Shown piece by piece: positions 6,035 to 60,852 of a DNA stretch of 64,000 nt. The translations under genes were made by a program, and so were the position numbers. Position 1 is the first letter of the stretch. The number at the start of each line of letters is the position of its first letter. This DNA is from Patescibacteria group bacterium (lineage in GTDB: Bacteria > Patescibacteriota > Patescibacteriia > JBHPGJ01): NCBI GenBank assembly GCA_042570545.1, contig JBHPGJ010000002.1, positions 31,741-95,740 of the forward strand, written 5' to 3'. The notes under the pieces were generated by a model. That model was not told where the DNA came from. It saw only the letters and a program-made list of their open reading frames with translations, and did no database searches.

Positions 6035-6086
6035 GACATAGTTACCAGAGAATTACCATAGAGGGTAGTCTTGCCTATATTAGTTA

Positions 6087-7967: not shown

Positions 7968-7971
7968 ATAT

Positions 7972-12422: not shown

Positions 12423-12488
12423 ATTTTTATATGTTGAGTATAGCAGAATATTAATAAATGGTTACCAAGCTGATAAGATTTTCATAAC

Positions 12489-12516
12489 TTGATTTTTATC
12501 GCATTTTTGCTATAAT
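12489..12516 (+). promoter_or_regulatory. Candidate sigma70-like promoter (TTGATT, 16-nt spacer, TATAAT) upstream of tRNA-Val, in a divergent intergenic region.
   Basis: The hexamers were read directly from the sequence: ttgatt at 12489-12494 and tataat at 12511-12516. Confidence 0.3.
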
Positions 12517-12601
12517 TTCTCTACTTATTATCTAATCTTAGCCAAAATCTTAACTTAATAGGCCTTATATAGTTAAGTTTGAATTATGAAAGTCACTTGT
12601 G

Positions 12602-12678
12602 GGGTGATTAGCTCAGCCGGTTAGAGCGCTATCCTCACACGATAGAGGCCCCTGGTTCAAGTCCAGGATCACCCACCA
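12602..12678 (+). tRNA. tRNA-Val (anticodon CAC) with an encoded CCA.
   Basis: Manual cloverleaf: acceptor GGGTGAT/ATCACCC, D-arm GCTC..GAGC, anticodon stem CTATC/GATAG with loop CTCACAC, T-arm CCTGG-TTCAAGT-CCAGG, discriminator A, CCA. Confidence 0.9.
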
Positions 12679-12692
12679 AAGAAATTTATTTC

Positions 12693-13358
12693 ATGGAAAA
12701 ATCAAGTACTAATTCAGATAAAAAAAGTCCTAAAGCAAAACCGGGATACAAATCCCAAGCTCGACTTACCAAACCAGAAGAAATAGCCCCGCCCTTTAAA
12801 ACTTCAGTGCGTGATTTTGTTATCGAAGTAGTTAAGGTCGTGGTGATCGCGCTGGCCATCATAATCCCAGTCCGTTATTTTCTGGTCCAGCCTTTTTATG
12901 TCAAGGGAGCGTCAATGGAGCCAAATTTTCAGGATCATGAATATTTGATAATTGATGAGATTAGTTATCGTTTTCGCGAACCAAATCGCGGCGAAGTGAT
13001 TGTAGTTAGAAATCCTCAACAGCGTAAAGAATTTTTTATAAAACGAATAGTTGGACTGCCGGGTGAGACAGTGGAAATTACAAATGATCGTATAAAAATT
13101 TCATCAGATCTCTACCCCACAGGTATAATCATAGATGAGTCTAGTTATTTGCCGGAAAATATAATAACCAAAGGTAACTTAGTAACCGTACTGGGGGACA
13201 CGGAATATTTTATCATGGGTGATAATCGCAACGCCAGTCTTGATTCCCGCATTTTTGGACCAGTAAACGATAGGGATATTATTGGCCGAGCCTGGCTAAG
13301 AGCCTGGCCAATAACCGAATGGCGCAGTTTTTCATCACCAGTTTATAATTATCCCTAA
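12693..13358 (+). CDS. lepB: Signal peptidase I.
   Basis: N-terminal TM segment; the motifs 'GASMEPNF', 'IKRIVGLPGETVEI' and 'YFIMGDNRNASLDSR' are S26-family boxes. Confidence 0.85.
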   Translation: MEKSSTNSDKKSPKAKPGYKSQARLTKPEEIAPPFKTSVRDFVIEVVKVVVIALAIIIPVRYFLVQPFYVKGASMEPNFQDHEYLIIDEISYRFREPNRGEVIVVRNPQQRKEFFIKRIVGLPGETVEITNDRIKISSDLYPTGIIIDESSYLPENIITKGNLVTVLGDTEYFIMGDNRNASLDSRIFGPVNDRDIIGRAWLRAWPITEWRSFSSPVYNYP

Positions 13359-13365
13359 GGAATAA

Positions 13366-14778
13366 ATGCCTACTAAAAAAAACGCCAAGGACAAACAAAC
13401 CCTACAATTACTTCGCGGATTTAAAGATATAATGCCCGATGACCAGCCAGCCTGGCTTTGGGTGCGGCAGCTAGTGAAGCAGATCGCTGCCAGCTACGGC
13501 TACCGGCGCCTGGACACGCCAATATTGGAAATGGAAAATTTGTTTGCCCGTACTATTGGTGAAGAAAGTGACATAGTCGAGAAAGAAATGTTTGTCTTCA
13601 CTGACCGTGGTGGTAATAAAGTAACCTTACGTCCAGAAACAACGGCCAGCTTTGCCCGCGCTTACGTAGAGCATGGACTGGTCAATCGTCCGCAACCGGT
13701 AAAGATGTATTATTTTGGCCCGCAATTTAGATATGACCGTCCGCAAGCCGGACGCTACCGTCAATTTCACCAGTTTGGCTTTGAATCTTTTGGTGAACAA
13801 GACGCCATTAATGATGCCCAACTTATTCAATTAGCACACTCGTTGTTGACCTATGAATTGAAGTTGCCTATCTCTTTACAAGTAAACAGTATTGGCGACA
13901 AACAATGCCGACCGCAATATATAAGATCATTAAACGATTACTACAAATCCCGTAAAAATGCCCTTTGTGACGAATGCAAGATCAGATTGAAAACTAATCC
14001 ATTGCGATTGCTTGACTGCAAAGAAAAAGATTGTCAGGAACTGGCGTCGTCAGCTCCACAGACAGTTGACCATCTTTGTGAAGAATGTCGAGATCATTTT
14101 GTAAGGTTGTTAGAATATCTTGATGAGTTGGAGTTGGGTTATGAACTTAATCCCAAATTAGTTCGTGGTCTGGACTACTATACCAAAACAGTATTTGAAA
14201 TTTGGCCAGCTAATGATCCCGAAGGATCCCAGTCGGCCTTGATCGGCGGCGGTCGCTACGATAATCTAGTGGCCCTGGTCGGTGGCCGACCAACGCCAGC
14301 TGTCGGTTTTGCTGCCGGCGTTGAGCGTATTATCAGCCAACTACACAAAAATAATGTTGTTATTCCCAAGGCTGATCAGGCAGATGTTTTCTTAACCCAA
14401 CTGGGCGACAAGGGAAGAAAGAAGAGCTTAAAATTATTTGAAGATATGAGACGTGCCGGTATTAATGTTTCTGAGAGCTTGTCCAAAGACAGTATCAAAT
14501 CACAATTAGAGATTGCTAACAATCTGGCCTGTAAGTTTAGTATCATCTTAGGTCAGAAAGAAATAATGGACGAAACAATTCTAATACGAGATATGGAAAA
14601 TGGCATCCAAGAAGTTGTTGATTTTGCTAAAGCAATACCAGAAATAAAAAAACGCCTTGATAAATATCAGAGCAGCAGCATTTCAAATCATGAAATAGAA
14701 CATCCAGCCGAAGAGAAAGGACCAGAAAAGAGAGGATCCGAAGAGAAAGAATCTGAAGAGAAAAAATCAAATGACTGA
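13366..14778 (+). CDS. hisS: Histidyl-tRNA synthetase with a Lys/Glu-rich C-terminal tail.
   Basis: Class II aaRS motifs and the HisRS-specific 'YYFGPQFRYDRPQAGRYRQFHQFGFESFG'. Confidence 0.9.
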   Translation: MPTKKNAKDKQTLQLLRGFKDIMPDDQPAWLWVRQLVKQIAASYGYRRLDTPILEMENLFARTIGEESDIVEKEMFVFTDRGGNKVTLRPETTASFARAYVEHGLVNRPQPVKMYYFGPQFRYDRPQAGRYRQFHQFGFESFGEQDAINDAQLIQLAHSLLTYELKLPISLQVNSIGDKQCRPQYIRSLNDYYKSRKNALCDECKIRLKTNPLRLLDCKEKDCQELASSAPQTVDHLCEECRDHFVRLLEYLDELELGYELNPKLVRGLDYYTKTVFEIWPANDPEGSQSALIGGGRYDNLVALVGGRPTPAVGFAAGVERIISQLHKNNVVIPKADQADVFLTQLGDKGRKKSLKLFEDMRRAGINVSESLSKDSIKSQLEIANNLACKFSIILGQKEIMDETILIRDMENGIQEVVDFAKAIPEIKKRLDKYQSSSISNHEIEHPAEEKGPEKRGSEEKESEEKKSND

Positions 14779-15112
14779 TTGTATTTTCTGTAAAATCATT
14801 ACTGGAGAAATTGAATCGAATAAATTATACGAAGACAACAAAGCTGTTGTTGTTAAAGATATCAAACCACAAGCGCCAGTACATTTATTAGTAGTCCCAA
14901 ATAAACATATACCGACCTTAGACGACACTACAAAGGAAGATGATAAGCTGCTTGGTCATCTAATTGGCTTGGCTCGAGATTCGGCGCGAGAAAACAACAT
15001 TTCCACTAATGGCTATCGGGTGGTAATAAACTGTCGTCAGCATGGTGGACAAGAAGTAGACCACCTACATGTGCATATACTGGGCGGCAAACAACTTGGG
15101 CAAATTGTGTAA
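14771..15112 (+). CDS. HIT-family (histidine triad) hydrolase.
   Basis: 'DHLHVHILGG' histidine-triad motif; the size matches the family. Confidence 0.85.
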   Translation: MTDCIFCKIITGEIESNKLYEDNKAVVVKDIKPQAPVHLLVVPNKHIPTLDDTTKEDDKLLGHLIGLARDSARENNISTNGYRVVINCRQHGGQEVDHLHVHILGGKQLGQIV

Positions 15113-15131
15113 AAGTGCTTAAAAGGGCAGT

Positions 15132-15160
15132 TTGACGTAGCCCGCTAAAGTTGTTATAGT
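15132..15160 (+). promoter_or_regulatory. Sigma70-like promoter (TTGACG, 17-nt spacer, TATAGT) upstream of rpsU, followed by the RBS AGGAGGTG.
   Basis: ttgacg at 15132-15137 and tatagt at 15155-15160; 'caggaggtg' lies just before the GTG start at 15212. Confidence 0.5.
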
Positions 15161-15211
15161 AAATTTGAAATTTAATTCATATTATCTACACCAGGAGGTG
15201 AATTCAATCAA

Positions 15212-15487
15212 GTGGTCGAAGTCAGGAAGAAGGAAGGAGAATCGGGCGAATCATTAATTCGTCGCTTCAATAAACGAGTTCAACAAAGCGGCGTCCTTAT
15301 TCAAGCCAAGCGTGGACGGTTTTTTGAAACACCAAAGAATAAAAGACAAATGAGAGAAGATGCCCAAAGACGAAGCGAAATAAAAGAACAGAAAGAATTA
15401 TTGCGCAAAATGGGTAAACTTGAAGAAAATTACGGTTCGCGTGGACGACGTCGAACAAGTTCTCGACCCCTCCCTAGAGTAAAATAA
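15212..15487 (+). CDS. rpsU: 30S ribosomal protein bS21 (GTG start).
   Basis: 'VEVRKKEGESGESLIRRFNKRVQQSGVLIQAKRGRFFETPKNKRQ' is typical S21; the C-terminus is basic. Confidence 0.9.
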   Translation: MVEVRKKEGESGESLIRRFNKRVQQSGVLIQAKRGRFFETPKNKRQMREDAQRRSEIKEQKELLRKMGKLEENYGSRGRRRTSSRPLPRVK

Positions 15488-15506
15488 ACGATTATCACAG
15501 CTTGTC

Positions 15507-15977
15507 ATGTCACTAAAAGATAGAATCGAGGCTGATTATCGTAAAGCCTTTAAAAGTAAACAGACCGAAGTCATGTCAGCTTTGCGCCTGCTTAAAGCAG
15601 CTGTAAAAAATGCGGAAATCGCGAAACGTAAAGATTTTGAAGATGATGAAGTAGAAAAGGTAATTAACCAAGAGGCTAAAAAAGTAAGGGATAGTATCGA
15701 AGCTTACCAACAGGGAAATCGTCAAGATCTGGTCAAGCAAGAAGAAGCTCAACTTAAGGTAATGGAAGACTATCTGCCCGAGCAGTTAAGCCCGGAAGAG
15801 TTAAAGGATATTGTTCACGACGTAATAAATCGATTACAAGCTAGTCGGCCCCAGGATATGGGACGAGTGATGAAAGAGATAATGTCTGTCACCGAGGGAC
15901 AAGCTGACGGTAAGCAAGTAAAAGAACTGGTCCAATCATTTCTAACATCAAATCAGGATAATTCTCAAAACCCATGA
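15507..15977 (+). CDS. GatB/YqeY-domain protein.
   Basis: Matches the YqeY family pattern 'LKDRIEADYRKAFKSKQ...LRLLKAAVKN...LKVMEDYLPEQLSPEEL'. This is the conserved rpsU-yqeY neighbourhood. Confidence 0.8.
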   Translation: MSLKDRIEADYRKAFKSKQTEVMSALRLLKAAVKNAEIAKRKDFEDDEVEKVINQEAKKVRDSIEAYQQGNRQDLVKQEEAQLKVMEDYLPEQLSPEELKDIVHDVINRLQASRPQDMGRVMKEIMSVTEGQADGKQVKELVQSFLTSNQDNSQNP

Positions 15978-18900
15978 GTAAAAGGCGCAAGTCTAACAAG
16001 ACCAACGTCTTAGTTATTATCGCTGCCCTAACCGCTGCAGTTTCAGTTGGTGGATTTTTTAGTCTGGTAAGCGTATCGGCTCAAACCTCATTTTCAATTG
16101 AAGATATTGGCAGCTCGATTGGTCTAGGCTCGGCTGACCTCAAAGATGTAGTTATAAATGTAATTAAGTGGGCGCTGGGTATACTAGCCCTAGCGGCGGT
16201 GGCCATAATGATCTACGGCGGTTTTCTATGGATTACAGCTCGGGGCCGGGAAGAACAAATTGAAAAAGCCAAGAAAGTAATCATTGGCGCCCTGATCGGC
16301 GTGGTCATTGTATTGCTATCGTGGGCAATTGTACTGTTTGTGGAGCGGTTTATATCAGGCAGTACCCAGACGGGGGGTACGGTTTGTACACCGGGCGACC
16401 AGATACCGCCAATACCCGCGACTGCTTGTTTTGTCTGTAATGCCACTGGTACGTCCTGGGTGCCGACAGGTGATCCAGCGTGTATACCAGGTCCGTCAGT
16501 ATTTACTTTGACTGACGTTGAGACTTCTAATAATGGCGATGCTACCGATGTACATCTTTGCAGTAATGCCAACAGTATCTTTAATCATAGACTTAATGCT
16601 CAAACGATCCTTGATGCTGATACCCTGGGCGATCTGGGGATTTATGAAAATCCCAACACACCCGGTGAGATTGAAGTGCTCGGATCTTTCATACCGCTAA
16701 CTAACTCAGCTACTTGGAAACACCAGCTGCATTGTTCAAATGATCGTACTCAATCATGCAATAATGATGCTGATTGTGGCGGTGCGCCAAATACTTGTGA
16801 CAAATTATTTGCAGCCAACACTGACTATGAAGCGCGATTTCCCCAAAGTATAGAAAATTTTTCAGGTGATTTTCTCCAAGCCTGTAGTGCCTTACCCGGC
16901 TGCAGCTTTAATAATATTACTAATAATTTTGAATTTGACTTTCACGTCGGCGTTACCACCGATATAGTGGAACCAACCATTGTCTCGGCTGATCCTATGC
17001 TGCCAGGCAATCCCGGCTACCCCGACCGCACCATTTCTCGATATCCGATCATTGATGTAAGTTTTAATGAACCGATTGATATGACGACGGTAGCTGCTCT
17101 TGATGTGATGGGAGTGGCCCGGCCAATACCGGCTAATGTAAAAATTGAACAATGGGATAATGATCCAGACGCTGGTGGTGCTTATGTGGTCGATGTCGAT
17201 CCAAATATAATTCAAGTTCAGGCCAAGCCGCAAGGCTTTAAACTAAGTTTAGATGGCGGTCATCTATTAGAACCCTTTACCTGGTATAAGATTATTGTTG
17301 ATAATGTTGAGGACCTGTGCGGCAACAGTATGGTAGCCCAAGTTGATTGGAATTTCCAAACTACCGATGCCGTACCCGGTGTGGTTGGTGTTTATCCGCC
17401 GGCTGGCAGCTCAAATGTTTGTCCTGATACTAAAATAGTAGTTACTTTTGGCACCACGATGTTTAATAGCGATGTCACTTTTCAGGTAACTGGAGGGTCA
17501 GTCCCTATAGTGATTACTCTGCCAGCAGCGTCAACAATGTTTCCCGGTCCTTATACTTGGACTGATGGAGGCGGCAATACGATTAGAGTAGTTGATCCAG
17601 GGCCAACGGCTGATAACAATTTCCGGGTTTATGAAGTTACGCCCGGTGTGCCGTTAGATATTAATACTACCTATGACGTGGCAATAACTACTACCCTCCA
17701 AATTGATGTTAACGGCACTACCTTAAGTCATAACTGGCAGTTTGCTACTTCTACACCCGAACTATGTGCTTGCACGCCGTTTGTGGCCACTGTTCAGCCC
17801 AATCAGGGCCCGCGTGGTATGTGTGTATCAATAGTTGGCGAGTGTTTTGACGGCACCGCAGCTCATCCGGCAACGGTTAGCAACGTGGAATTTGACGTCG
17901 ATTATGGCAATCCACCTCCACCAGCCCCTTGGACCTCGGGTGAAGTTACATACAATATTTTATTACCGGATATTATCGGTACCAGTATACCGCTGATAAA
18001 TACCAACGATGGCAATAATCCAATATTCTTTAACGGTGACTGGCCGCGAGCCCGGGTTACTATAGCTTATGCCGACCCTGCATATGGATCGCATAGCTCT
18101 GATCCGGCCACTAATTCCTTCTTTGTCAATTCAGATAATCTGGCTGACGGGCCGTGCTTATTCTCACTAAATCCTGGTGCCGGTATTGCCGGTACCACAG
18201 TTAATGCTAAGGGTATTAGATTTGGTGATCCGCCCCCAGCACAAACAACGGCTGAAATTCACTTTGAGGATGGCTCCGGCGGAGCCAACGCCGGCTGGCT
18301 GCCCGGCGGCTGGTCACAGACCGATATACTAACAAGCGTTCCCGGTTGGGCCATAGATGGCGATGTCTTTGTCCGTAACGACGCCGGTGATTCTAATAAA
18401 ATTTACTTTGATGTCATACCGCCGGCCCCAACAAGTCCAATGGTACTGGGACATTGGCCAATTTGTGCCTCAGCCTGCCTGAATGCCGGTATGGGCGCTG
18501 ATTTTAATCTAAATGTTGAAATGGATCCGACCACGATAGATGGCAATACTATCAACGTCTGGAAATGTACTGATGGACCGACATGTAATGTTTTTGATCC
18601 GATACCAGTAGCCATAACCGTGCCGTCATATGTTTTCAATCCAATAATTCCTATGAACCGGGCTGAGTGGTTTGGTCAAAACGACTTTGATCCTATTGAG
18701 TATTATCGAGTGATTATGAGTAATGGTATTTTAGCTCTGAGCGACGGCACGCCGATCACCAATCTAAATTACGATGATCCAAATAACGCCATCAACGGTC
18801 TGGATAGCTTCAGCTGGATATTCCAAACCGGCGCCTCAGCTTGTGATATAGATACTATTAATACACTGCCTGATGCAGTTACCATGACCTTTGCCAATCA

Positions 18901-21900
18901 GCAGGTTGGTTTTGTCAGTACCCCGTATGGTCCGTCTGATGCCTGCAGCGGCGGCGGTCAAATATTAAATCCCAACAACAACAGCTGGTTCTGGGATGAT
19001 CTGGGTACACCAAACTTTACCGTTAATCCAACCGGTCCTGGCTTTGGTCTAAATCAGACAGTTGTCCAAGCCGTAAACGAAAATCTGGCAGTTGCTCCTG
19101 AACAATTATGTACCGAAGCAGCACGAATAGATCCACAACCGGCCCGGGACTGCTCTGATATTACCATTGATTATGCTCATTGTGTTGATAATCTTGATTG
19201 TCAGGACTATGACGGTATCCCGGCTACAATTGAATGTCCGGCAGCCACTTGTGATGATGTGACAAATCGCTGTAATCCGATCGTTTTTGGCCTGACGCCA
19301 AACAATGGTCCGTTAGGCACCTGGACAAGTGTCAATGGTTGCTATTTAGGCGGTTATCAATCTCCGACTTGCTTTAATCCCACCCAACCCGAACACGGCA
19401 ATCCCTGTAATTTTGATTCCCAATGCGGTATCGGCGGTGAGTGCCGCGGCAGCCGGGTAATATTCCATAATCAGGTTCCAGCCAAGTGGCCAGCGGTTTG
19501 CGGAGCGCCGGGTTCAACTTGGAGCGATACATCCATCATCGTGGAAGTACCGGACAAGGACACACCGCCTGGGGATGATGCTGTTACCGGACCGGTGGAA
19601 GTGTTTAGGTCCATCGATAATTTCTCAGCTATGTCGCCGGCTGACTTCACTGTCAATGCTAATCCGTTAGCGCCGGGCTTGTGCTGGGCGATACCAAATC
19701 AAGGACCAGAGCAAACGCTGGTGACTCTAATAGGGGATAATTTTGGCTTCCCCCGCGATATAGCCAACGACAAGGTCTACTTTTACAGCTCGACAGCTCC
19801 TGGCAATAGAGTTGAAGTAGCATCGTATATTGATTGGCAAAATCAGCAGATTCAAGTACGAGTACCAGCAGGTGCAGAAACTAATTTGGATATAGCTCAT
19901 ATCTGGTATCCCAATGAAGTAGCTGTCTTTAAGAGTTTATTACAGAGCAACCCGGTCAAGTTTGATGTTAATGCTAACGCTTGCGGGGCTACCTGTTCTA
20001 ATGACGCCGAGTGTGTAGCAGTCGGTCCAAATCTCGGCTGTGATGCTACCGGTTGTTGCGGTACGGCGCCTGATGTTGATTTTGTAAATACTTATCCGGG
20101 TATAAATGAAGTTAATGTTTGCCGTAATACATTAGTTACTGTTAGCTTTGATATGGCGATGATCCCCAGTACGTTAAATGCTAATAATATTACATTAGAG
20201 AATCTTACTGCTGGCGGCATTGTTTCACCCACCTCACTTAATCGCGGCAGTCAAGTTATTAAACTTTCCTATGGCTTATTGGATGCCGGCACCGATTACC
20301 GGATTACCGTTACAACCAATGTAGCTAACTCCCAAGGCGTGCATATGCTCAACAATAGGTCTTGGACATTCCAGACTAGGGCCCAAACACCACAAGAATC
20401 TGGTATTTGTAACATAGCGTTTGTAAATGTAACACCTGGTAATCATGATTATACCGCTTTGAATGAAAATATGACGTTCAATGCTCAGGCGCTTGATGCC
20501 ACCGGACAACCCATAATACCTATCCCCGGTGTCTTAGATTGGGCCTGGCTGTGGGAGAGCACTGATACTAATATTGTAAATCTGTTAGGACCCGTAGATA
20601 CTGACACAGTGAATACCGATGCCCTGGCTAATGGCTCGGTCCTGATCAGGGCTAACGCTAATGCCACCGTCGGCTGGGTAGGCACGGTAATCGGCCAGGC
20701 GACAGCTAATGTAAGATTCTGTGAAAATCCCTGGAGCTATACTGATGTACCAGGCTGTGCAATTGGGACGTGTAATGAGAATTATAATTTTACCACCGGT
20801 TATTGTCGTGGTAATGCCCCACCTTTACTGCCGGTACTGGATACCAGCATTCCCAATCGGGGCTGGTTGACGCAAAATGCCGTTCTAAGAAAACAATACT
20901 TGTTCAGGATCCCCAACACTGAGGACGGTATCGGCATACGAGTATTTGCAAATCCGGGACTGTTGTCAGTCCAAGAATGGTATAACCAAGAGGTGCCGAA
21001 TCCCGGAACGATCCAAGCCCTGACGGTAGATGGTTATGACGCAATTCGTGATGGTACCAGTGTCTATGTTGGGGCTACCAACTATACTGCTGCTACAGGG
21101 TTAAATGGTCGCATCTTCTTGTTTTCTTATAATAGCGACGCTGGTCCGGAAACGGTTAATATATTTAATCAATTGTTAGACTATATTAGTTTTAATACTA
21201 ACATTACAACCAGTACCTGTCTGGCCGTGCCAGCGGTACCGGACAAGGTATGTATTGCGCGAGATCTGAAACGGGTAAATGGAGTTAGGACAGTGGCTGG
21301 ACTACTGAATGGCTATCGAGCGGGTGGCCAAGGCGGCGGTGGTAGTAATCTGGTGAAAAATAAGGGTTTTGAAGTCGACGATAGTACCAATTATGATACA
21401 GCTGCCGGCTATGACAATGCCGTGGCAGGCGACGATCGGCCAAATGGCTGGTCAGAACCGCCGGCAACAGGTACACGAGATAGCGTGGTCAAAAGAGGTG
21501 GAGCCTTCTCAGTAAAAATCGAAACTAATGGCAATCAACGTTATGTTTATCAGGATATTCAGATTGAACAAGGTAAGAAATATATCGTCTCGGGCTGGAT
21601 CAGGACCGATCTGGAAATAGTTGGTGGCAGTAAAGCGGCCCTAACAACCGATTGTGTTGATGGCGGTCATAGTGTTAACAATGCCGGTTGTAACTTATAT
21701 CATCCCGCTGGCGTGGGCTTATCTGGTATAAGCGAATGGACTAGACAAAGTTTCATTGTTGAGGCTAATATGCCGACCAGTTCTCGACCCTACCTAAGAG
21801 TTAATTGCTATAACGGTCCCAATGCTGCCAGTACCGGTAAGATCTGGTGTGATGACATATCAGTTGTTGAAGGTACATCAATTTATCCTGATTTGGCTTC

Positions 21901-22276
21901 GGGCAGTTTTATCACCGGTATGACCACCAGTAGCTGGCCGACCTCTTGGCGCGGTAACTTCGCCAATCAACTGGGTTCCAATCAGTTGCCGGTTGATCCC
22001 TTGAATGTGTTTGATAATTGTCCGGTCGGATTTGATCAGACAGCTTGCTGGGATGATTCGATCAAACAATTTATATGCAATCAAGAAAGCCACATTTATG
22101 GTTATAAAACCGATCAAGGCTCCGACTATGACTTGTACGCCAATTTGGAATATGAAGGCTTGGGTGCCTGGACCAATTTTAATACGGCCACCGATATCTG
22201 TGCTGACGCTAGTGTCCAGACAGTTGCGCCAGGATCTCGCTGTGGCTGCTTTGACTATCGATTACAAAGTCCTTAA
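15974..22276 (+). CDS. Giant (2100 aa) Cys-rich extracellular protein with an N-terminal VirB2/TrbC-pilin-like two-helix membrane domain.
   Basis: N-terminus 'VINVIKWALGILALAAVAIMIYGGFLWITARGREEQIEKAKKVIIGALIGVVIVLLSWAIVLFV' has two hydrophobic helices separated by a basic loop. The remainder is Cys-, Gly-, Asp-, Asn- and Pro-rich with Ig-like stretches. The start uses an ATGA overlap with yqeY. Confidence 0.8.
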   Translation: MSKRRKSNKTNVLVIIAALTAAVSVGGFFSLVSVSAQTSFSIEDIGSSIGLGSADLKDVVINVIKWALGILALAAVAIMIYGGFLWITARGREEQIEKAKKVIIGALIGVVIVLLSWAIVLFVERFISGSTQTGGTVCTPGDQIPPIPATACFVCNATGTSWVPTGDPACIPGPSVFTLTDVETSNNGDATDVHLCSNANSIFNHRLNAQTILDADTLGDLGIYENPNTPGEIEVLGSFIPLTNSATWKHQLHCSNDRTQSCNNDADCGGAPNTCDKLFAANTDYEARFPQSIENFSGDFLQACSALPGCSFNNITNNFEFDFHVGVTTDIVEPTIVSADPMLPGNPGYPDRTISRYPIIDVSFNEPIDMTTVAALDVMGVARPIPANVKIEQWDNDPDAGGAYVVDVDPNIIQVQAKPQGFKLSLDGGHLLEPFTWYKIIVDNVEDLCGNSMVAQVDWNFQTTDAVPGVVGVYPPAGSSNVCPDTKIVVTFGTTMFNSDVTFQVTGGSVPIVITLPAASTMFPGPYTWTDGGGNTIRVVDPGPTADNNFRVYEVTPGVPLDINTTYDVAITTTLQIDVNGTTLSHNWQFATSTPELCACTPFVATVQPNQGPRGMCVSIVGECFDGTAAHPATVSNVEFDVDYGNPPPPAPWTSGEVTYNILLPDIIGTSIPLINTNDGNNPIFFNGDWPRARVTIAYADPAYGSHSSDPATNSFFVNSDNLADGPCLFSLNPGAGIAGTTVNAKGIRFGDPPPAQTTAEIHFEDGSGGANAGWLPGGWSQTDILTSVPGWAIDGDVFVRNDAGDSNKIYFDVIPPAPTSPMVLGHWPICASACLNAGMGADFNLNVEMDPTTIDGNTINVWKCTDGPTCNVFDPIPVAITVPSYVFNPIIPMNRAEWFGQNDFDPIEYYRVIMSNGILALSDGTPITNLNYDDPNNAINGLDSFSWIFQTGASACDIDTINTLPDAVTMTFANQQVGFVSTPYGPSDACSGGGQILNPNNNSWFWDDLGTPNFTVNPTGPGFGLNQTVVQAVNENLAVAPEQLCTEAARIDPQPARDCSDITIDYAHCVDNLDCQDYDGIPATIECPAATCDDVTNRCNPIVFGLTPNNGPLGTWTSVNGCYLGGYQSPTCFNPTQPEHGNPCNFDSQCGIGGECRGSRVIFHNQVPAKWPAVCGAPGSTWSDTSIIVEVPDKDTPPGDDAVTGPVEVFRSIDNFSAMSPADFTVNANPLAPGLCWAIPNQGPEQTLVTLIGDNFGFPRDIANDKVYFYSSTAPGNRVEVASYIDWQNQQIQVRVPAGAETNLDIAHIWYPNEVAVFKSLLQSNPVKFDVNANACGATCSNDAECVAVGPNLGCDATGCCGTAPDVDFVNTYPGINEVNVCRNTLVTVSFDMAMIPSTLNANNITLENLTAGGIVSPTSLNRGSQVIKLSYGLLDAGTDYRITVTTNVANSQGVHMLNNRSWTFQTRAQTPQESGICNIAFVNVTPGNHDYTALNENMTFNAQALDATGQPIIPIPGVLDWAWLWESTDTNIVNLLGPVDTDTVNTDALANGSVLIRANANATVGWVGTVIGQATANVRFCENPWSYTDVPGCAIGTCNENYNFTTGYCRGNAPPLLPVLDTSIPNRGWLTQNAVLRKQYLFRIPNTEDGIGIRVFANPGLLSVQEWYNQEVPNPGTIQALTVDGYDAIRDGTSVYVGATNYTAATGLNGRIFLFSYNSDAGPETVNIFNQLLDYISFNTNITTSTCLAVPAVPDKVCIARDLKRVNGVRTVAGLLNGYRAGGQGGGGSNLVKNKGFEVDDSTNYDTAAGYDNAVAGDDRPNGWSEPPATGTRDSVVKRGGAFSVKIETNGNQRYVYQDIQIEQGKKYIVSGWIRTDLEIVGGSKAALTTDCVDGGHSVNNAGCNLYHPAGVGLSGISEWTRQSFIVEANMPTSSRPYLRVNCYNGPNAASTGKIWCDDISVVEGTSIYPDLASGSFITGMTTSSWPTSWRGNFANQLGSNQLPVDPLNVFDNCPVGFDQTACWDDSIKQFICNQESHIYGYKTDQGSDYDLYANLEYEGLGAWTNFNTATDICADASVQTVAPGSRCGCFDYRLQSP

Positions 22277-22287
22277 ATTTATGTATT

Positions 22288-22758
22288 ATGACTAACGGCA
22301 CAAACATCCCACCAACTCAACCGGTCGAATCATCAAGCCGCTTTAATAAATGGTGGCTAATAATTATTATCTTAATTTTAGTTGTTGTGGGAGTAGTATT
22401 TGGAATTTCATATTATACTCGCGACACGTCGACAGATACCGATACTAGTAATGCTACCCAGAATGTAAACGGCATCATCTTTCCGATGGATGTTCATCAA
22501 CCACCCGATCAAGATCGTGACCGTCTGACAGATAATGAAGAAGCTACTTATGGTACCGATCCGCTAAAAAGCGATACTGATGGCGATAGTTTAAGCGACT
22601 ATGATGAGATAGCTATTTATAAAACTGATCCCAACGATCAGGATACCGATAAAGATGGCCATCTAGATGGTGACGAAGTAAAGGATGGATTTGATCCCAA
22701 CGGTCCCGGTGAGATATTAAATATTAATAATTCGTTATCCAACCAAACCCCCAATTAA
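22288..22758 (+). CDS. Single-pass membrane protein with thrombospondin type-3-like Ca-binding Asp repeats.
   Basis: TM segment 'WWLIIIILILVVVGVVFGI'; repeats 'TYGTDPLKSDTDGDSLSDYDE...KTDPNDQDTDKDGHLDGDEV'. Confidence 0.6.
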   Translation: MTNGTNIPPTQPVESSSRFNKWWLIIIILILVVVGVVFGISYYTRDTSTDTDTSNATQNVNGIIFPMDVHQPPDQDRDRLTDNEEATYGTDPLKSDTDGDSLSDYDEIAIYKTDPNDQDTDKDGHLDGDEVKDGFDPNGPGEILNINNSLSNQTPN

Positions 22759-22762
22759 AAAT

Positions 22763-24184
22763 ATGGCAAAACAAAAAACTGAAACAACTGACGTCCGTCC
22801 GCAACATAAAGTATATTCTATGCCTGACCGGTTTATGCCTAAAGAATCGGGTGGAGGCAACAGCTTCTTAACCATAATACTGATCTTAGTTGTTATTGCC
22901 TTAATTGCTGGTGGGGCAATATTTTATTTTATGCGAACACCAGCCAATGAGAATACGAATACTTTGCCTAACACCAACGGTATCGATTTAACTAATAGTA
23001 TTAGCAACACCAACACAGCCCAAGAACTAAACTTGGCTGAGCACCAAATAGTAAACGATGGTTCGACAATTAATATCCCAGATAATTGGCAAATAACCGC
23101 CAATGTTCAAGATGATGTTATTTTAACCGTGGCCAGTACCCAACAGGATACTACCAGCGATGGCAATAGTATCGCTGCCCTGATTACCGTAGCCCGACGA
23201 ACAGTGGAAACAAACACCATATCCGCTTTTGTAAACGAATTCTTAGTAGAGCAGGAAAGACGTTTCCCTGATCTGGAAGTAATTACTCAGAATACTGTCA
23301 CCGTAGCTGGACGAGAAGCAATAGTAGCCGATTACACATACAGCAGCCTACAAACTAAACTACAAGTGCGAACTTTATATATAATTATTGGTCAAACTGC
23401 ATATTTGGTGAACTTCACGGCTATTGAAGAGCAGTGGCAAAAATATGACCAAGATGCTACCAAGATCCTGACATCAATAAGGCCTGCAGCTCAGCAGACG
23501 ACTAATATAAATACCAATGCTAACAGCAATAATAATACTAATTCATCAGTAAACACGAATAACAATACTAATTCAAATGTGACTCCCATCCCGTTGACTA
23601 ATGATGATGATCTGGATGGCCTGACCTTAGATGAGGAAACCTTATACGGGACCGATCCCCAGGCCAGAGACACAGACGCCGATGGATTCATTGACGGCTA
23701 CTCTTTGTCATCAGCCGGCGTGGTCAGTGGTGAATTAGCACTCGGTTATAATCCTAATGGCGACGGCCTGATGAAGGATACTAACCTGGTACGTGGTTAT
23801 ACCAATCAAGACTTTAGTTATTCAATTATTTACCCGACCAGTTGGATAGTAGAATCGATTGTTCCTGACAACGCTAACATTATGTTTACCTCGCAACCCA
23901 GCACTGGAGAATTTGTTCAAGTAATTATTCAGGATAATCCGAGTGAATTAACGGCCAAGAACTGGTATCTTAATTTAAATCCGACAACAAATCCAAGTTT
24001 GATAAAAACCATATCGGTTAATGGTCTTGAAGGTGTTCGTAGTTTGGACGGACAAACAGTTTATTTATCAAAAGCCGATAAGATTTATATTTTAGTTTAT
24101 AATGTGGGTAATTTAGAAACGGCAAATTTTCGCGCAACTTACGAAATGATGTTGCAGAGTTTTAAATTAACCGGGAGCAGCTAG
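22763..24184 (+). CDS. Single-pass membrane protein with an Asn/Thr low-complexity linker and a TSP3-like repeat.
   Basis: TM segment 'FLTIILILVVIALIAGGAIFYF'; 'DDDLDGLTLDEETLYGTDPQARDTDADGFIDG'; an N-rich segment around nt 23500-23590. Confidence 0.6.
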   Translation: MAKQKTETTDVRPQHKVYSMPDRFMPKESGGGNSFLTIILILVVIALIAGGAIFYFMRTPANENTNTLPNTNGIDLTNSISNTNTAQELNLAEHQIVNDGSTINIPDNWQITANVQDDVILTVASTQQDTTSDGNSIAALITVARRTVETNTISAFVNEFLVEQERRFPDLEVITQNTVTVAGREAIVADYTYSSLQTKLQVRTLYIIIGQTAYLVNFTAIEEQWQKYDQDATKILTSIRPAAQQTTNINTNANSNNNTNSSVNTNNNTNSNVTPIPLTNDDDLDGLTLDEETLYGTDPQARDTDADGFIDGYSLSSAGVVSGELALGYNPNGDGLMKDTNLVRGYTNQDFSYSIIYPTSWIVESIVPDNANIMFTSQPSTGEFVQVIIQDNPSELTAKNWYLNLNPTTNPSLIKTISVNGLEGVRSLDGQTVYLSKADKIYILVYNVGNLETANFRATYEMMLQSFKLTGSS

Positions 24185-24192
24185 GGTTATCG

Positions 24193-24642
24193 ATGGCGGT
24201 AAAGTTTTTTGGACATTTGCCAGAAAATCCAACCAAGCTGAAGGCGATAGTCAAATACTGTCTCCGCTCGTATCGGGCACTACCAAGACAAGTCAATATA
24301 ATATTTGTCAGTCAAAAAGTAATCCAGCAACTCAATCGACAATATCGCCAGCACAATAAACCGACAACAATACTTAGCTTTAATTTTGATTTGATAAATC
24401 TGTCGAAGGATCAGCAATCGATCGGGGAAATATATTTAAGCTCAGCTGAAATTAGACTAGCAGCCAAAAAATCAAAGCTGGCTTATCAATCAATGCTATA
24501 TCACCTAGTAATTCATGGCTGTCTGCACTTAGCCGGCTTCCATCATCAGAAAATGCAGTCGGCTAATACTATGCACAAGGAAGAAAAAAAATTAGCCGAA
24601 AAATTCACTCCAAATATTTTACCATCACATGTCATTCATTAA
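24193..24642 (+). CDS. ybeY: rRNA maturation endoribonuclease YbeY.
   Basis: The 'HLVIHGCLHLAGFHH' H-x3-H-x5-H zinc motif near the C-terminus; appropriate size. Confidence 0.75.
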   Translation: MAVKFFGHLPENPTKLKAIVKYCLRSYRALPRQVNIIFVSQKVIQQLNRQYRQHNKPTTILSFNFDLINLSKDQQSIGEIYLSSAEIRLAAKKSKLAYQSMLYHLVIHGCLHLAGFHHQKMQSANTMHKEEKKLAEKFTPNILPSHVIH

Positions 24643-25000
24643 TATTAAATCATTTGTAAAAAGTGTCAGCTATGCCTGGAGGGGCATTAGGCAAGCGTAC
24701 AAAAGTGAACAAAATTTTCGCCTTGATACGTTTGCCGCTGTTATAGTTGTGGCCTTAATGGTATTTTTCCGACTTACTTGGGGCGAAGTGATCGTGTTAA
24801 CTTTAATGATTATACTGGTTATGGTTTTAGAGCTGGTCAATACTAGTGTCGAAAAGATGACCGATTTATTTAAACCTCGCATGCATCATTATGCCGAGGC
24901 CGTAAAAGATATTTTAGCCGGAGCGGTATTAATTGCCTCATTAGGAGCCCTATTTGTAGGTTTTCTAATATTTTACCCTTATATTTTGGGGCAAAAATAA
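24629..25000 (+). CDS. dgkA: Diacylglycerol / undecaprenol kinase.
   Basis: Three TM helices and the 'EKMTDLFKPRMHHYAEAVKDILAGAVL' DAGK_prokar motif. Confidence 0.8.
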   Translation: MSFINIKSFVKSVSYAWRGIRQAYKSEQNFRLDTFAAVIVVALMVFFRLTWGEVIVLTLMIILVMVLELVNTSVEKMTDLFKPRMHHYAEAVKDILAGAVLIASLGALFVGFLIFYPYILGQK

Positions 25001-25067
25001 CTTTTCAAATATCAATATCTCGTATATAATAGACGAAGATTACTATAAATCCTAAAAAATAAATAAA

Positions 25068-26306
25068 ATGGCAAAAGAGGAATTTATTTGCGGCATTGAT
25101 GTCGGCTCGGCAATGGTCCGAGTGGCCATTGGGCAGCAACCAACTGAAGAAAATACAGCTGCTCATATTGTTGGTGCCGCAGAGCATCCGGCAGAAGGAG
25201 TTTCTAAGGGATCTATAAGCAGTATTGAAGATACGGTTAGTTCAATATCTCAAGCTTTGGAACAAGCCGAAAGAATGACTGGCGTGCCGATAGAGCAGGC
25301 CTTTGTTGGCGTCAATGGCACTCATGTAGTATCACAGGATAGTCATGGTGTAATTGCTGTTGCTAAGTCAGATGGCGAAATCAGAGAAGAGGACGTCAGT
25401 CGGGTGATTGAAGCAGCTCAAGCGGTGGCCACCCCAGCCAACTATGAGATTTTACATGTTATCCCGCGCAGCTTCACGGTTGATAATCAGAAAGGGATAA
25501 AGGATCCGATCGGTATGACCGGTATCCGCCTTGAAGTGGATGCGCAGATTATTCAAGCCCTATCAAGTCAAATTAAAAATTTAACCAAATGTATATATCG
25601 GACTTCTGTCGATATTAATGATTTAGTATTGGGGCTGTTAGCGGCGGCCGAATGTACGCTTAATCACCGGCAAAAAGATTTGGGAGTTACTTTAATTAAC
25701 ATCGGTTCTAGTACAACGGGCGTAATGGTCTTTGAAGAAGGTGATGTTCTACATACCAAGATCCTACCGGTGGGCTCAGCTCATCTGACCAATGACATAG
25801 CTATCGGTCTAAGGACCTCAATAGATTTGGCTGAACAAGTTAAGTTAAATTATGGTACCGCCTTGCCTGAAGCAGTGAATAAGAGAGATGAGGTGAATCT
25901 CGGTGAACTTGGCGGAGACGAAGGAGTCATTTCTCATAAACACATTGCCGAAATTATTGAGGCCCGAGTTGAAGAAATATTTACTATGGTCGACAAAGAA
26001 TTACAGTCGATCGATCGTTCGGGCTTGCTACCGGCTGGAGTGGTGCTGATCGGGGGTGGAGCAAAATTATCCGGAATGGTAGAGGTAGCTAAAAGGGTAT
26101 TCCGACTGCCGGCGGTGATTGGTACGCCACAGAGTGTCACCACGGCCATTGACAAGGTTAAAGATCCGGCCTTTGCTACATCAGTCGGCTTGGTAAAGTG
26201 GGGCACCGGATTCGACAATCAAACCGGATTTTCACTGAGTAATCTCTCATCGGTAAAGGATGTAACCAAAAAAATGAGAGGCTGGTTTAAGTCTTTGATG
26301 CCTTAG
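25068..26306 (+). CDS. ftsA: Cell division protein FtsA.
   Basis: Actin-like ATPase N-terminus 'FICGIDVGSAMVRVAIGQ'; length and position immediately upstream of ftsZ. Confidence 0.9.
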   Translation: MAKEEFICGIDVGSAMVRVAIGQQPTEENTAAHIVGAAEHPAEGVSKGSISSIEDTVSSISQALEQAERMTGVPIEQAFVGVNGTHVVSQDSHGVIAVAKSDGEIREEDVSRVIEAAQAVATPANYEILHVIPRSFTVDNQKGIKDPIGMTGIRLEVDAQIIQALSSQIKNLTKCIYRTSVDINDLVLGLLAAAECTLNHRQKDLGVTLINIGSSTTGVMVFEEGDVLHTKILPVGSAHLTNDIAIGLRTSIDLAEQVKLNYGTALPEAVNKRDEVNLGELGGDEGVISHKHIAEIIEARVEEIFTMVDKELQSIDRSGLLPAGVVLIGGGAKLSGMVEVAKRVFRLPAVIGTPQSVTTAIDKVKDPAFATSVGLVKWGTGFDNQTGFSLSNLSSVKDVTKKMRGWFKSLMP

Positions 26307-26463
26307 GGCTAATAAACCCCATAAATAAGGGTGTTGGTAAGGCTTTACAAACTTAAATAGGCCAGTTACACTAGGTAATAGACAAAAACAAAGGCAAAAA
26401 AACAAAAATTACCCCAAGGTTTTAGCTTGGCGGTTAATACGTTTTAATACTCTACAAAATCAT

Positions 26464-27669
26464 ATGATTCAAAAAATATCTCGTCGCGGTCCAGTAGAAG
26501 TAAAACCAGATATTGAAACACTTGCTAAGATAAAAGTCGTCGGAATTGGCGGTGGCGGCAACGCTGCAGTCAATCGGATGATTTCTTCTAATCTACAAGG
26601 TGTTGAATTTGTCTCAATTAATTCAGATGCCCAAGCCCTACATCAGTCTGATGCACCACATAAGCTGCACATTGGTAAGACTACCACTCGCGGACTTGGT
26701 GCCGGCATGGATCCAGAATTGGGACGAAAAGCAGCTGAGGAAGCACAAGACGAGATTCATGATCTGTTAAAAGGATCAGATATGGTTTTCCTTACTTATG
26801 GTCTCGGCGGTGGTACCGGCACTGGTGCTACACCGATTATTGCCGAGGTTGCTAGAGATGTCGGTGCGTTAACGGTGGCGGTAGTTACAAAACCATTTGC
26901 TTTTGAAGGTGCACAACGTGCGGCCATTGCCGATGCTGGACATGAAGACATCGCCGATAAGGTTGATACAATTATTACAATTCCTAATGATCGCCTACTG
27001 CAGATAATTGATAAAAAAACATCACTGCTTGATGCTTTCTCGGTGGTTGATGATGTATTACGTCAAGGCGTGCAGGGTATTTCAGAATTAATTACCATTC
27101 CCGGTTTAATCAATGTCGATTTTGCTGACGTCAAAGCGATCATGGAAAATACCGGTTCCGCCTTAATGGGTATTGGCCAAGCTTCCGGTGAGAACAGGGC
27201 AGTTAATGCCGCTAAGGCTGCCATTGATAGTCCGTTATTAGAGCTATCAATTGAAGGAGCTAAGGGTATCCTATTTACAATTACCGGCGGACCTGATCTG
27301 GGTATGCATGAAGTTAACGAAGCTGCCCGAGTTATTACCGGTGCCGCTGATGGTAATGCTAAAGTAATATTTGGCTCAGTTATCGATGACGCTCTAGAGG
27401 GCGAGGTAAAGGTTACCGTTATTGCCACCGGTTTTGGTAAAGGAGCCGCTCCTAGTCGGACAGCAAAGAAAATAATAGCACCGAAAGTAACCCCTTTTGA
27501 AGAACCTGAGCCAGCAGCTATGGTATCAGAACAAGTTGAGGTGCCAATGCCTGAGCCGGTAACTACAGCACCTCCCGAGCCATTACCTAAAGTTGAAGTA
27601 TCTGAAGAACCAACCAAAGAAGAAGAGGATTTAGAAATTCCTGCTTTTATCAGGAAGAAAATGATGTAG
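26464..27669 (+). CDS. ftsZ: Cell division GTPase FtsZ with a Pro/Glu-rich C-terminal tail.
   Basis: '[13 protein letters not shown]', 'GLGAGMDP' and 'GGGTGTGA' are tubulin/FtsZ signature motifs. Confidence 0.95.
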
Positions 27670-27748
27670 CCTGCTTGGCTATGGCTTCAATATGTATTTA
27701 TTTATAGTGACCTGGACTAAAAAGGTGCTTTTTACGTAAATTATATTT

Positions 27749-28225
27749 ATGAAATGTCCAGCCTGTCATCATAGCGATACCAAGGTAACTGATTCTCGTT
27801 TGACCAGAGAGGGTTTGGCTATTCGTCGACGTCGAGAATGTTTGAAATGCTCATTCCGGTTTACCACAGCTGAGGAGGTAGAAATTTTAAACTTAGCCGT
27901 AGTTAAGCGTGATGGCCGATCTGAACCATATAACCGAGATAAGCTTGAAGCCGGATTAAGAAGAGCACTTGAAAAAAGACCAGTAACTGTCGAGGAATTT
28001 AAAAGATTGGTTAGTCGCATTGAGCATGATATACAAAAAAAGGGACGACAGGAGATTAAAACACGTGAGATCGGCGAAATTGTTATGAAAAACTTAAGAC
28101 GACTTGATGCGGTAGCTTATATAAGATTTGCTTCGGTTTATCGGTCTTTTAAAGATGCTAAGACTTTTCAGCAGGAACTTAATCAGTTACTGGGCAAGAA
28201 GAGAAAAAGTAAAAATAAAAGCTAA
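27749..28225 (+). CDS. nrdR: Transcriptional repressor NrdR.
   Basis: 'MKCPACHHSDTKVTDSR...RRRECLKCSFRFTTAE' zinc ribbon plus an ATP-cone. Confidence 0.9.
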   Translation: MKCPACHHSDTKVTDSRLTREGLAIRRRRECLKCSFRFTTAEEVEILNLAVVKRDGRSEPYNRDKLEAGLRRALEKRPVTVEEFKRLVSRIEHDIQKKGRQEIKTREIGEIVMKNLRRLDAVAYIRFASVYRSFKDAKTFQQELNQLLGKKRKSKNKS

Positions 28226-28309
28226 AGTTAGTAATAAGCAAAAAGCGGTGTTTGATGATTATTTGAAAACGTTTTAAAATGACCCAATACTCAATATTAA
28301 CTTAATAAA

Positions 28310-56024: not shown

Positions 56025-56045
56025 TATTATGTATATAATATAACC

Positions 56046-57966: not shown

Positions 57967-57970
57967 TTTA

Positions 57971-60849: not shown

Positions 60850-60852
60850 CCA

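Follow-up and report, generated by a model that had tools for sequence, protein, structure and literature searches.

A conserved Patescibacteria locus encoding a giant cysteine-rich protein with an N-terminal pilin-type hairpin, a candidate anchored adhesin

In a 64,000-nucleotide stretch of the genome of a Patescibacteria group bacterium (contig JBHPGJ010000002.1 of assembly GCA_042570545.1, positions 31,741 to 95,740; hereafter, the window), we studied a gene at 15974-22276 that encodes a protein of 2100 amino acid residues (hereafter, the giant). In this protein, a small membrane module of the type IV secretion system (T4SS) pilin family PF18895 precedes a cysteine-rich ectodomain of about 1970 residues. 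We found that genes of this kind occupy a conserved locus, which has the same flanking genes at the complete loci examined and no T4SS gene nearby. It is this locus that is new here: the combination of domains is visible in precomputed Pfam annotations, and a full-text search of the literature found no paper on pilin-giant fusions or on their fixed position. We favor the reading, to which we give about an even chance, that the giant is a fibrillar adhesin on a monoderm Patescibacteria cell, with a conserved hairpin as its membrane anchor and an ectodomain that can be swapped.

Work on host attachment and host choice in Patescibacteria has so far dealt mainly with type IV pili and with small VirB2-like pilin arrays in a few cultivated Saccharibacteria. 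A description of such small pilins and their arrays, based on PF18895, is available for Patescibacteria (PMC12102498), and the arrays have been reviewed (PMC12857230). Large Cys-rich extracellular proteins, for which a role in attachment was proposed, were noted in genomes of the candidate phyla radiation (CPR) in 2016 (PMC4736985), and an MdbA/VKOR-type disulfide system was noted as enriched in the CPR in 2018 (bioRxiv 10.1101/335083).

The initial annotation of the window, made from the sequence alone, had proposed a 2100-residue open reading frame (ORF) that is coupled to yqeY by an ATGA overlap, and had quoted three peptides from it. The ORF is present on the + strand (6303 nt, ATG start; ORF list and translation), and all three quoted strings were found in its translation. 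The ATG overlaps the yqeY stop codon (15975-15977) in 'acccATGAgt', and the profile match of the upstream gene confirmed that it encodes YqeY (Table 1). The protein is identical to the NCBI entry P0001, 'Ig-like domain-containing protein [Patescibacteria group bacterium]', which places the organism in the CPR; the gene is already called there, yet without interpretation. Two minus-strand ORFs, at 16213-16572 and 16892-17233, were rejected as genes and are shadows of the + frame, which has more than 50 full-length homologues. A phmmer search with the whole giant gave no match among PDB sequences at E<=1. A scan of 12400-28300 for promoters and terminators gave counts that were not above those of shuffled sequence. 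The G+C content is 46-48% in the giant gene (window 16001-22000) versus 40-41% in the flanking housekeeping genes, and may reflect only the Gly/Ala/Pro/Thr-rich composition of the protein.

The evidence for a pilin-type anchor comes from the first 140 or so residues. PF18895 (T4SS_pilin) matched residues 61-122 with 33.6 bits in the whole protein and 38.4 bits in the first 140 residues (cut-off, 26.6), and it was the sole family above its cut-off on the N-terminus. It also matched all 38 aligned N-termini of relatives (best E, 2.4e-14). The independent profile NF045849 (Mbov_0395, pilin-like conjugal transfer proteins of the integrative and conjugative elements (ICEs) of Mycoplasma) gave 40.3 bits (E 1.9e-10) with the isolated 142-residue N-terminus and 28.8 bits with the full-length protein (cut-off, 40), and it likewise matched 38 of 38 relatives (best E, 9.4e-12). 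The giant's N-terminus thus appears to be homologous to the NF045849 proteins but is no equivalog of them; size and context differ. The pilin-like membrane domain proposed at the outset is supported by both profiles. The comparison with TrbC/VirB2 (PF04956), suggested together with PF18895, had a different outcome: the giant's own N-terminus gave no match at E<=10, and only 7 of the 38 relatives matched (best E, 1.4e-5). Homology to TrbC/VirB2 therefore has transitive support only.

A Kyte-Doolittle scan located hydrophobic stretches at residues 10-36, 56-90 (two overlapping windows), and 96-130, and none beyond residue 130. The AlphaFold2 model, built from the 38-sequence alignment, has a helix at residues 9-32, corresponding to the signal sequence, and a hairpin of helices at 56-88 and 93-131; the block-mean predicted local distance difference test (pLDDT) is 89-94 across residues 61-120. 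Scan and model agree with the initial description of a signal-like helix followed by two hydrophobic helices with a short basic loop, here TARGREEQIEKAKK. The contrary case named there, a signal peptide plus one transmembrane (TM) helix with no profile match, is contradicted by the PF18895 match and by the confident hairpin. The charge pattern, with basic residues at the extreme N-terminus and in the loop and an acidic segment at residues 37-60, fits a cleaved signal peptide, an N-terminus outside, a cytoplasmic loop, and a C-terminus outside. A36, right before a conserved 'QT', is kept in at least 90% of the 38 relatives, and we infer that cleavage takes place between ...SA and QT. The hydrophobic stretches, the charges, and the modeled hairpin lead us to predict that the C-terminal part of about 1970 residues is extracellular.

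A Foldseek search of the PDB with the N-terminal model returned generic helical hairpins and nothing at E<=1e-3, and such a search cannot discriminate hairpins. A profile of the 38 N-termini found no VirB2 or TraA among PDB sequences, and gave only spurious repeats in designed 'Pizza' proteins. Because neither search retrieved a solved pilin, the predicted fold is compatible with a VirB2-type pilin and is not proof of one. The module is the most conserved part of the protein. Residues 51-100, its core, form the most conserved 50-residue block of the whole protein, with 63% identity versus about 30% in the ectodomain, and G83, G91, A99, K100, G109, and I119 are invariant.

We then examined the forms in which the module occurs. 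With residues 37-130 (94 residues) as the query, phmmer found 31,069 matches at E<=1e-3, of which 2,962 were at E<=1e-10, among 1.84 billion cluster representatives. The best 150 representatives consisted of 72 chains of 2-8 tandem modules (200-820 residues), 57 giants of at least 1000 residues, in which the module always starts at residue 10-66, 17 small stand-alone proteins of less than 200 residues (50-68% identical to the giant's module), and 4 mid-sized proteins with a single module. PF18895 is also present in 51 of 53 whole-protein homologues of the giant (1272-3651 residues). Both counts bear out the initial statement on recurrent fusion of the domain to very large proteins. The small stand-alone pilins (about 120 residues) share the extracellular 'SFSIEDIG..GLG..DLK' segment and end soon after TM2, and the giants carry the same unit as these free pilins. 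A tblastn search with the module against 72,556 plasmids gave no match.

The tandem chains ('polypilins') include P0054, with 7 modules in 606 residues, and P0055, with 8 modules in 820 residues (others are among P0054-P0062). We found no description of tandem multi-module pilin chains in the literature.

The chief new finding concerns the genomic position of the giant. In the window, the genes for signal peptidase I, histidyl-tRNA synthetase (HisRS), a HIT protein, ribosomal protein S21, YqeY, the giant, a 156-residue TSP3 protein, a 473-residue membrane protein, YbeY, diacylglycerol kinase (DAGK), FtsA, and FtsZ lie on the same strand. The giant and its neighbors are separated by distances that range from a 4-nt overlap to 11-nt gaps, and the block is probably co-transcribed. 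Across the window, the ORFs of 110 residues or more gave no match to a T4SS family, and no second pilin module was found among its 572 six-frame ORFs.

We compared 12 related giant loci (L001/L002, L003-L008, and L009-L012), namely those of P0007, P0010, P0029, P0033, P0050, P0039, and P0052 and four from GTDB species representatives. Eleven were complete, and L011 ends at a contig edge inside the giant gene. An orthologue is also carried by the complete genome CP060223.1. With minor variations, all 11 complete loci have the order signal peptidase, HisRS, S21/YqeY, giant, TSP3 protein, membrane protein of about 350-470 residues, (YbeY), and DAGK and/or FtsA-FtsZ. The arrangement is kept for P0033, P0039, P0050, and P0052, in which the alignment covers 3-19% of the query, essentially the module only. 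YqeY is encoded directly or one to two genes 5' of the giant in 11 of the 12 loci; none was recorded in L008, which also has no FtsA or FtsZ match. At 10 of the 11 complete loci, the gene after that of the giant encodes a TSP3 protein or a phmmer homologue of the 156-residue protein. In L004, an unannotated 82-residue gene stands in the TSP3 position, and YbeY is missing. Every complete related locus has a protein of 345-431 residues at the position of the 473-residue protein, with a phmmer homologue in L009, L010, and L012. A RelA/SpoT gene is inserted upstream in L006 and L008. No T4SS gene was shown at the 12 giant loci examined.

At the loci of P0033, P0039, P0050, and P0052, a second, 'medium' protein with PF18895 and Big_5 (614-986 residues) is encoded just 5' of the giant. 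The modules of the medium protein and the neighboring giant are 59-65% identical in L005 and L008, and 31-44% identical over longer N-terminal alignments in L006 and L007, which suggests that the medium protein arose by duplication within the locus. It was rejected as the counterpart of the query giant; only the module aligns.

Seven small-pilin loci were also inspected. They do not have the giant-locus neighbors, save for one distant TSP3-like match in L017, and six of the seven hold arrays of 2-10 module genes. The large neighboring ORFs that were scanned next to the arrays in L013, L015, and L016 gave no T4SS family. These comparisons indicate that the giants are orthologous: their locus is inherited vertically, with the anchor conserved and the ectodomain open to exchange, and it is distinct from the pilin arrays.

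The ectodomain agrees with the initial description of a region of Cys clusters and Ig-like stretches. The giant has 62 Cys residues (2.95%, an even number), all after residue 137, and 41 of the 62 are kept in at least 80% of 25 collinear homologues (MAFFT alignment), which argues for a fixed disulfide pattern. Pfam mapping was carried out on 300-residue segments. Big_5 gave a whole-protein score of 84 bits and three domains, at residues 355-463, 468-592, and 1369-1468, and no Pfam family was found in these segments for the membrane-proximal residues, about 135-330. TIG, which is seen weakly in the giant, is in the precomputed annotation of many giant homologues. No S-layer or SLH-type domain was found in Pfam and NCBIfam scans of the giant.

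The distal part was modeled separately. The AlphaFold2 model of residues 1590-2100 (16 sequences; pLDDT 78.5, predicted template modeling score 0.75) consists of an alpha/beta domain (1590-1756), a helix (1757-1784), a low-confidence linker (1786-1843), a beta-sandwich (1844-1966), and a sheet domain (1969-2100); over residues 1-190 of the model, the block-mean pLDDT is 85-97. The alpha/beta domain, the helix, and the terminal domain, together designated as the cap, are the best-conserved part of the ectodomain, with 49% identity in block 1651-1700. The cap also occurs alone, in secreted proteins of about 320 residues with ordinary signal anchors (P0195 and P0198). It has no match among PDB sequences. 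Its helix and C-terminal domain show weak, unconfirmed similarity to T2SSG (PF08334), which was seen in 7 of the 15 caps compared (best E, 4.4e-4, below the cut-off). The idea that the cap is the head of a type IV pilin was not favored; a comparison with one such pilin by hhalign gave a probability of 0.3%, and the stand-alone caps do not have a prepilin leader. No prepilin motif was found anywhere in the window.

The sandwich is an insertion in the cap. It matches carbohydrate-binding modules (CBMs) of families CBM4, CBM16, and CBM22 in the PDB (Foldseek, E 9e-5 to 1e-3, probability 1.0), as well as sandwiches in BFVD with which phage tail and receptor-binding proteins bind sugars. Pfam gave a weak CBM_4_9 match at residues 1792-1878 (E 0.009). 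The occupancy of the sandwich in the alignment of 25 homologues is 0.11-0.15, and about 4 of 26 collinear homologues carry the insert.

Table 1. Positions of the giant gene, its parts, its neighbors, and selected genes at related loci (window numbering, unless a locus is named)
Feature	Position	Strand	Evidence or remarks
Giant gene, pilin module/ectodomain fusion	15974..22276	+	ORF list, translation, identical NCBI protein P0001
Predicted Sec signal peptide, residues 1-36: basic N-terminus and hydrophobic helix, conserved site between ...SA and QT	15974..16081	+	Hydrophobic segment 10-36, AlphaFold2 helix 9-32, A36 conservation
Conserved extracytoplasmic N-terminal segment, residues 37-60, 'QTSFSIEDIGSSIGLGSADLKDVV'	16082..16153	+	Alignment of 53 modules; also in stand-alone pilins of about 120 residues
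T4SS_pilin (PF18895) hairpin, residues 61-122: TM1, basic loop 'TARGREEQIEKAKK', TM2	16154..16339	+	Pfam, NCBIfam NF045849, AlphaFold2
Membrane-proximal Cys-rich region, residues ~135-330, 11 Cys, after Gly/Thr linker	16376..16963	+	Cys positions; C152, C170, C196, C304, C310 conserved
Two Big_5 Ig-like domains, residues 355-592	17036..17749	+	Pfam, E 5e-11 and 1e-11
Weak IPT/TIG-like stretch, residues ~1241-1306	19694..19891	+	PF01833, E 0.026-0.033, below cut-off
Third Big_5, residues 1369-1468, after 6-Cys knot at 1337-1362	20078..20377	+	Pfam; Cys conservation 0.80-0.88
Conserved alpha/beta domain and long helix, first half of distal cap, residues 1590-1784	20741..21325	+	AlphaFold2, conservation
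CBM-like beta-sandwich inserted in cap, nearest relatives only, residues ~1844-1966	21503..21871	+	Foldseek, weak Pfam
Conserved C-terminal domain, second half of cap, 6 nearly invariant Cys, residues 1969-2100	21878..22273	+	Alignment, AlphaFold2
Signal peptidase I (S26), first gene of syntenic block	12693..13358	+	PF10502, E 2e-43; upstream in 12/12 related loci
yqeY	15507..15977	+	PF09424, E 4.8e-44; ATGA overlap with giant gene
156-residue single-pass membrane protein, bacterial TSP3 (Ca-binding type) repeats, 11 nt 3' of giant	22288..22758	+	PF18884 TSP3_bac, 36.3 bits vs cut-off 25
473-residue single-pass membrane protein, two DcrB/PsbP-like regions, one TSP3-like motif, 4 nt downstream	22763..24184	+	DcrB E 1.1e-4, PsbP E 1.9e-3, both below cut-off
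ybeY, dgkA, ftsA, ftsZ, downstream boundary of block	24193..27669	+	Profile matches, synteny
Medium PF18895+Big_5 genes	L005:7157-9559, L006:6427-9387, L007:8151-9995, L008:7264-9888
Arrays of 6-10 small PF18895 genes	L013:7461-11493, L015:685-8385, L016:1661-9867		Solute-binding protein gene (SBP_bac_1/8) directly before array

In the reading that we favor, the giant would be exported by the Sec pathway and its 36-residue signal peptide would be cut between ...SA and QT. Residues 37-60 would then lie outside, TM1 would run inward, the loop would be cytoplasmic, TM2 would run outward, and the remaining 1970 or so residues would be extracellular. The ectodomain would be a chain of Ig-like domains (Big_5 and TIG-like), stiffened by up to 31 disulfides, mostly at conserved Cys positions; we estimate about 15-18 domains, which would span some tens of nanometers if extended. 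At its distal end would stand the conserved cap, which in this lineage would present the CBM-like sandwich, a type that phages and glycosidases use for glycan binding, and the giant would bind a surface polymer of a partner (host) cell. The 156-residue TSP3 protein and the 473-residue PsbP/DcrB-like protein, both single-pass, would be likely membrane-proximal partners. A helical hairpin of the T4SS-pilin type would thus serve as the anchor, in place of a sortase motif or one TM helix. Contact of the module with small pilins or a T4SS may occur in addition, and the function as an adhesin does not need it.

Two features of fibrillar adhesins are present in the giant, a stalk of repeated Ig-like domains and a distal domain of a binding type, though the latter is lineage-specific. 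A fixed position among housekeeping genes, combined with an exchanged ectodomain, is the pattern expected of a core attachment device that adapts to different hosts.

Several observations weigh against a hairpin-anchored adhesin. The role in adhesion is suggested by the types of domains only. The CBM-like insert, as it is carried by about 4 of 26 homologues, cannot be the conserved function, and the only recurrent family signal of the conserved cap is the weak T2SSG similarity. No disulfide-forming enzyme was seen in the window. Finally, the conservation of the anchor goes beyond the need of a passive TM anchor, and its six invariant residues point to specific interactions, possibly in pilus assembly.

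This last point leads to the alternative that the giant is a true minor pilin or a pilus-borne adhesin. A Patescibacteria T4SS would extract the hairpin and co-polymerize it with small PF18895 pilins, and the ectodomain would sit at the tip of a VirB2-type pilus or sparsely along it. We consider this rather unlikely, though it is the main rival. The identity of 50-68% between the module and the stand-alone pilins extends over the whole length of the module, and the invariant small and basic residues in this most conserved part of the protein favor specific assembly contacts. Both termini of the F/pED208 pilin face outward (PMC5018250), so a C-terminal fusion is topologically allowed. One census reports VirB4 from 2,407 assemblies among about 3,030 of Patescibacteria, and small VirB2-like pilins near virB4 from 1,135 (PMC12102498); in Southlakia, the pilin array is essential (PMC10633639; PMC12857230). 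However, no T4SS gene lies near the giants, either at the loci examined or in the window, and the nearest small-pilin arrays (L013, L015, and L016) adjoin genes for solute-binding proteins and not T4SS genes. As 72% of the surface of a TraA subunit is buried in the pilus (PMC5018250), an appendage of 1970 residues would be tolerable only on rare or terminal subunits. A pilus of this type has not yet been seen in any Patescibacteria, and the review speaks only of a 'potential to elaborate conjugative pili' (PMC12857230).

A broader possibility, which we regard as rather unlikely, is that the VirB2-type pilin serves as a general handle, used as a free subunit, in 2-8 tandem copies, or fused to adhesins of 1000-3600 residues at a single conserved locus linked to division genes. 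A T4SS, or some other machine that includes the co-conserved TSP3 and PsbP/DcrB-like proteins, would lift the handle out of the membrane and place the adhesin on a filament that contains lipid and touches the host. If this is true, no natural fusion of pilin and adhesin would precede the giant in the VirB2 family, and the giant would give the host-attachment organelle of CPR lineages other than Saccharibacteria a defined molecular candidate. Entry of the handle into a pilus would also alter current views of the cargo of VirB2-type filaments.

A structural role in the envelope seems to us quite improbable. The giant would be a wall-spanning scaffold or an S-layer-like coat for envelope integrity or division, fixed to lipid by the hairpin and assisted by the TSP3 proteins in a Ca-dependent way. 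The tight packing with housekeeping genes and the fixed core-genome position between rpsU-yqeY and ybeY-dgkA-ftsA-ftsZ at the loci examined agree with such a role, as does the reported prevalence of S-layers in Patescibacteria (bioRxiv 10.1101/2024.05.28.596244). On the other hand, the wholesale replacement of the ectodomain between lineages at a constant locus is unusual for a lattice-forming protein, and the Pfam and NCBIfam scans revealed neither SLH nor any other known S-layer domain. The similarity of the distal CBM-like domain to receptor-binding modules also counts against this role, as does the Cys content of 3-6%, which is unusual for S-layer proteins.

The idea that the N-terminus is a signal peptide with generic TM helices, and the pilin match an artefact of hydrophobicity, is hardly credible and was rejected: weak matches to unrelated membrane families (E 1e-3 to 1e-2, for example, 7TM_GPCR_Srsx, BrkB, and Cyt_bd_oxida_II), the generic Foldseek hairpins, and the profile search of PDB sequences without VirB2 or TraA stand against PF18895 as the only family above its cut-off, the agreement of two independent profiles in 38 of 38 relatives, the 2,962 representative clusters at E<=1e-10, and conserved polar motifs ('GLGxxDLK', 'YGGFLWMTAxGNEExIEKAKK', and 'SWAIV') outside the TM cores.

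As to the neighbors of the giant gene, the initial annotation had named two TSP3-repeat membrane proteins downstream. The profile match of the 156-residue protein (36.3 bits) supports this for the first. The 473-residue protein, with one TM helix, has a single TSP3-like Asp-rich motif by eye, but TSP3_bac gave no match at E<=0.01. The rpsU-yqeY ... ybeY-dgkA flanks (window 15212-25000) recall the order rpsU-yqeY-...-phoH-ybeY-dgkA-era-recO of Firmicutes (Bacillus subtilis). The surface-protein cassette occupies the place of other genes in this ancient rpsU-yqeY...ybeY-dgkA block, and recO is at 45425-46177 in the window.

Elsewhere in the window, a run of predicted surface proteins at 71-4828, 4892-7097, 7113-9096, and 9102-10385 comprises a 1585-residue ORF with no Pfam or NCBIfam match, adjacent dockerin (PF00404) and cohesin (PF00963) proteins, and a weak Big_13 protein; a dockerin protein is also found upstream of the block in L004. 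An Arn-like sugar-modification cluster at 55221-62349 (a formyltransferase, a GT2 glycosyltransferase, a DegT-type aminotransferase, two methyltransferases, and two ArnT-like PMT_2 membrane glycosyltransferases) might glycosylate surface proteins or lipids. ComEC (Competence and DUF4131), the DNA-uptake channel typical of Patescibacteria, is followed by a gene with a metallo-beta-lactamase fold at 31625-33998.

The giant locus, which keeps both its pilin-type anchor and its place on the chromosome while the ectodomain varies by lineage, offers a concrete candidate that can be recognized genome-wide, and the giant is a good candidate for a core host-attachment structure of the ultra-small Patescibacteria. 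There is also a practical consequence. Judging from the inclusion criteria in PMC12102498, censuses of 'VirB2 pilins' by PF18895 without a length filter may also count giants and multi-module chains outside a T4SS context.

Among known systems, the closest in sequence are the small VirB2-like pilins of Patescibacteria (PF18895), such as the arrays of Southlakia epibionticum and Nanosynbacter lyticus (PMC12102498; PMC10633639). Like the giant, they begin with a signal peptide and a short, conserved segment outside the membrane, followed by a hairpin whose two helices are joined by a basic loop. They have about 100-200 residues, and their genes commonly form arrays of 2-11 members and are commonly close to virB4, whereas the giant has a C-terminal ectodomain of about 1970 residues and is present as a single copy in the window, in a housekeeping block. 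Judged by sequence, the giant is a member of the PF18895 family, one that lacks two features of T4SS pilins, the small subunit size and the T4SS or array context. To our knowledge, no VirB2-family pilin with a large natural C-terminal fusion is known.

The TrbC/VirB2/TraA pilins of the diderm T4SS (PF04956; F/pED208, PMC5018250) share with the predicted module of the giant a long signal peptide, a two-helix hairpin, a basic loop, and non-cytoplasmic termini. They differ in that the giant has no PF04956 match at E<=10 and no sequence match to the solved pilins, and the fold search was non-discriminating. Mbov_0395 and MMCAP2_0565 of the Mycoplasma ICEs (NF045849) have a profile whose cut-off is just reached by the isolated N-terminus of the giant. 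They and the giant alike stem from lineages that are wall-less or monoderm, and the T4SS of these lineages are members of the MPF-FATA class or are nested within it (PMC12102498). The Mbov_0395 proteins have about 80 residues and are encoded by ICEs, whereas the giant is chromosomal and linked to housekeeping genes.

In its overall build, the giant resembles the fibrillar adhesins and the large Cys-rich proteins of the CPR (PMC4736985): it has an anchor, an Ig-like stalk, and a distal domain of a binding type, and it is large, rich in Cys, and predicted to be extracellular. It differs in its anchor, an N-terminal pilin-type hairpin in place of an LPXTG motif with sortase, a lipobox, or an ordinary TM helix, and in its family the anchor and the position are conserved, while the stalk and the tip are exchanged.

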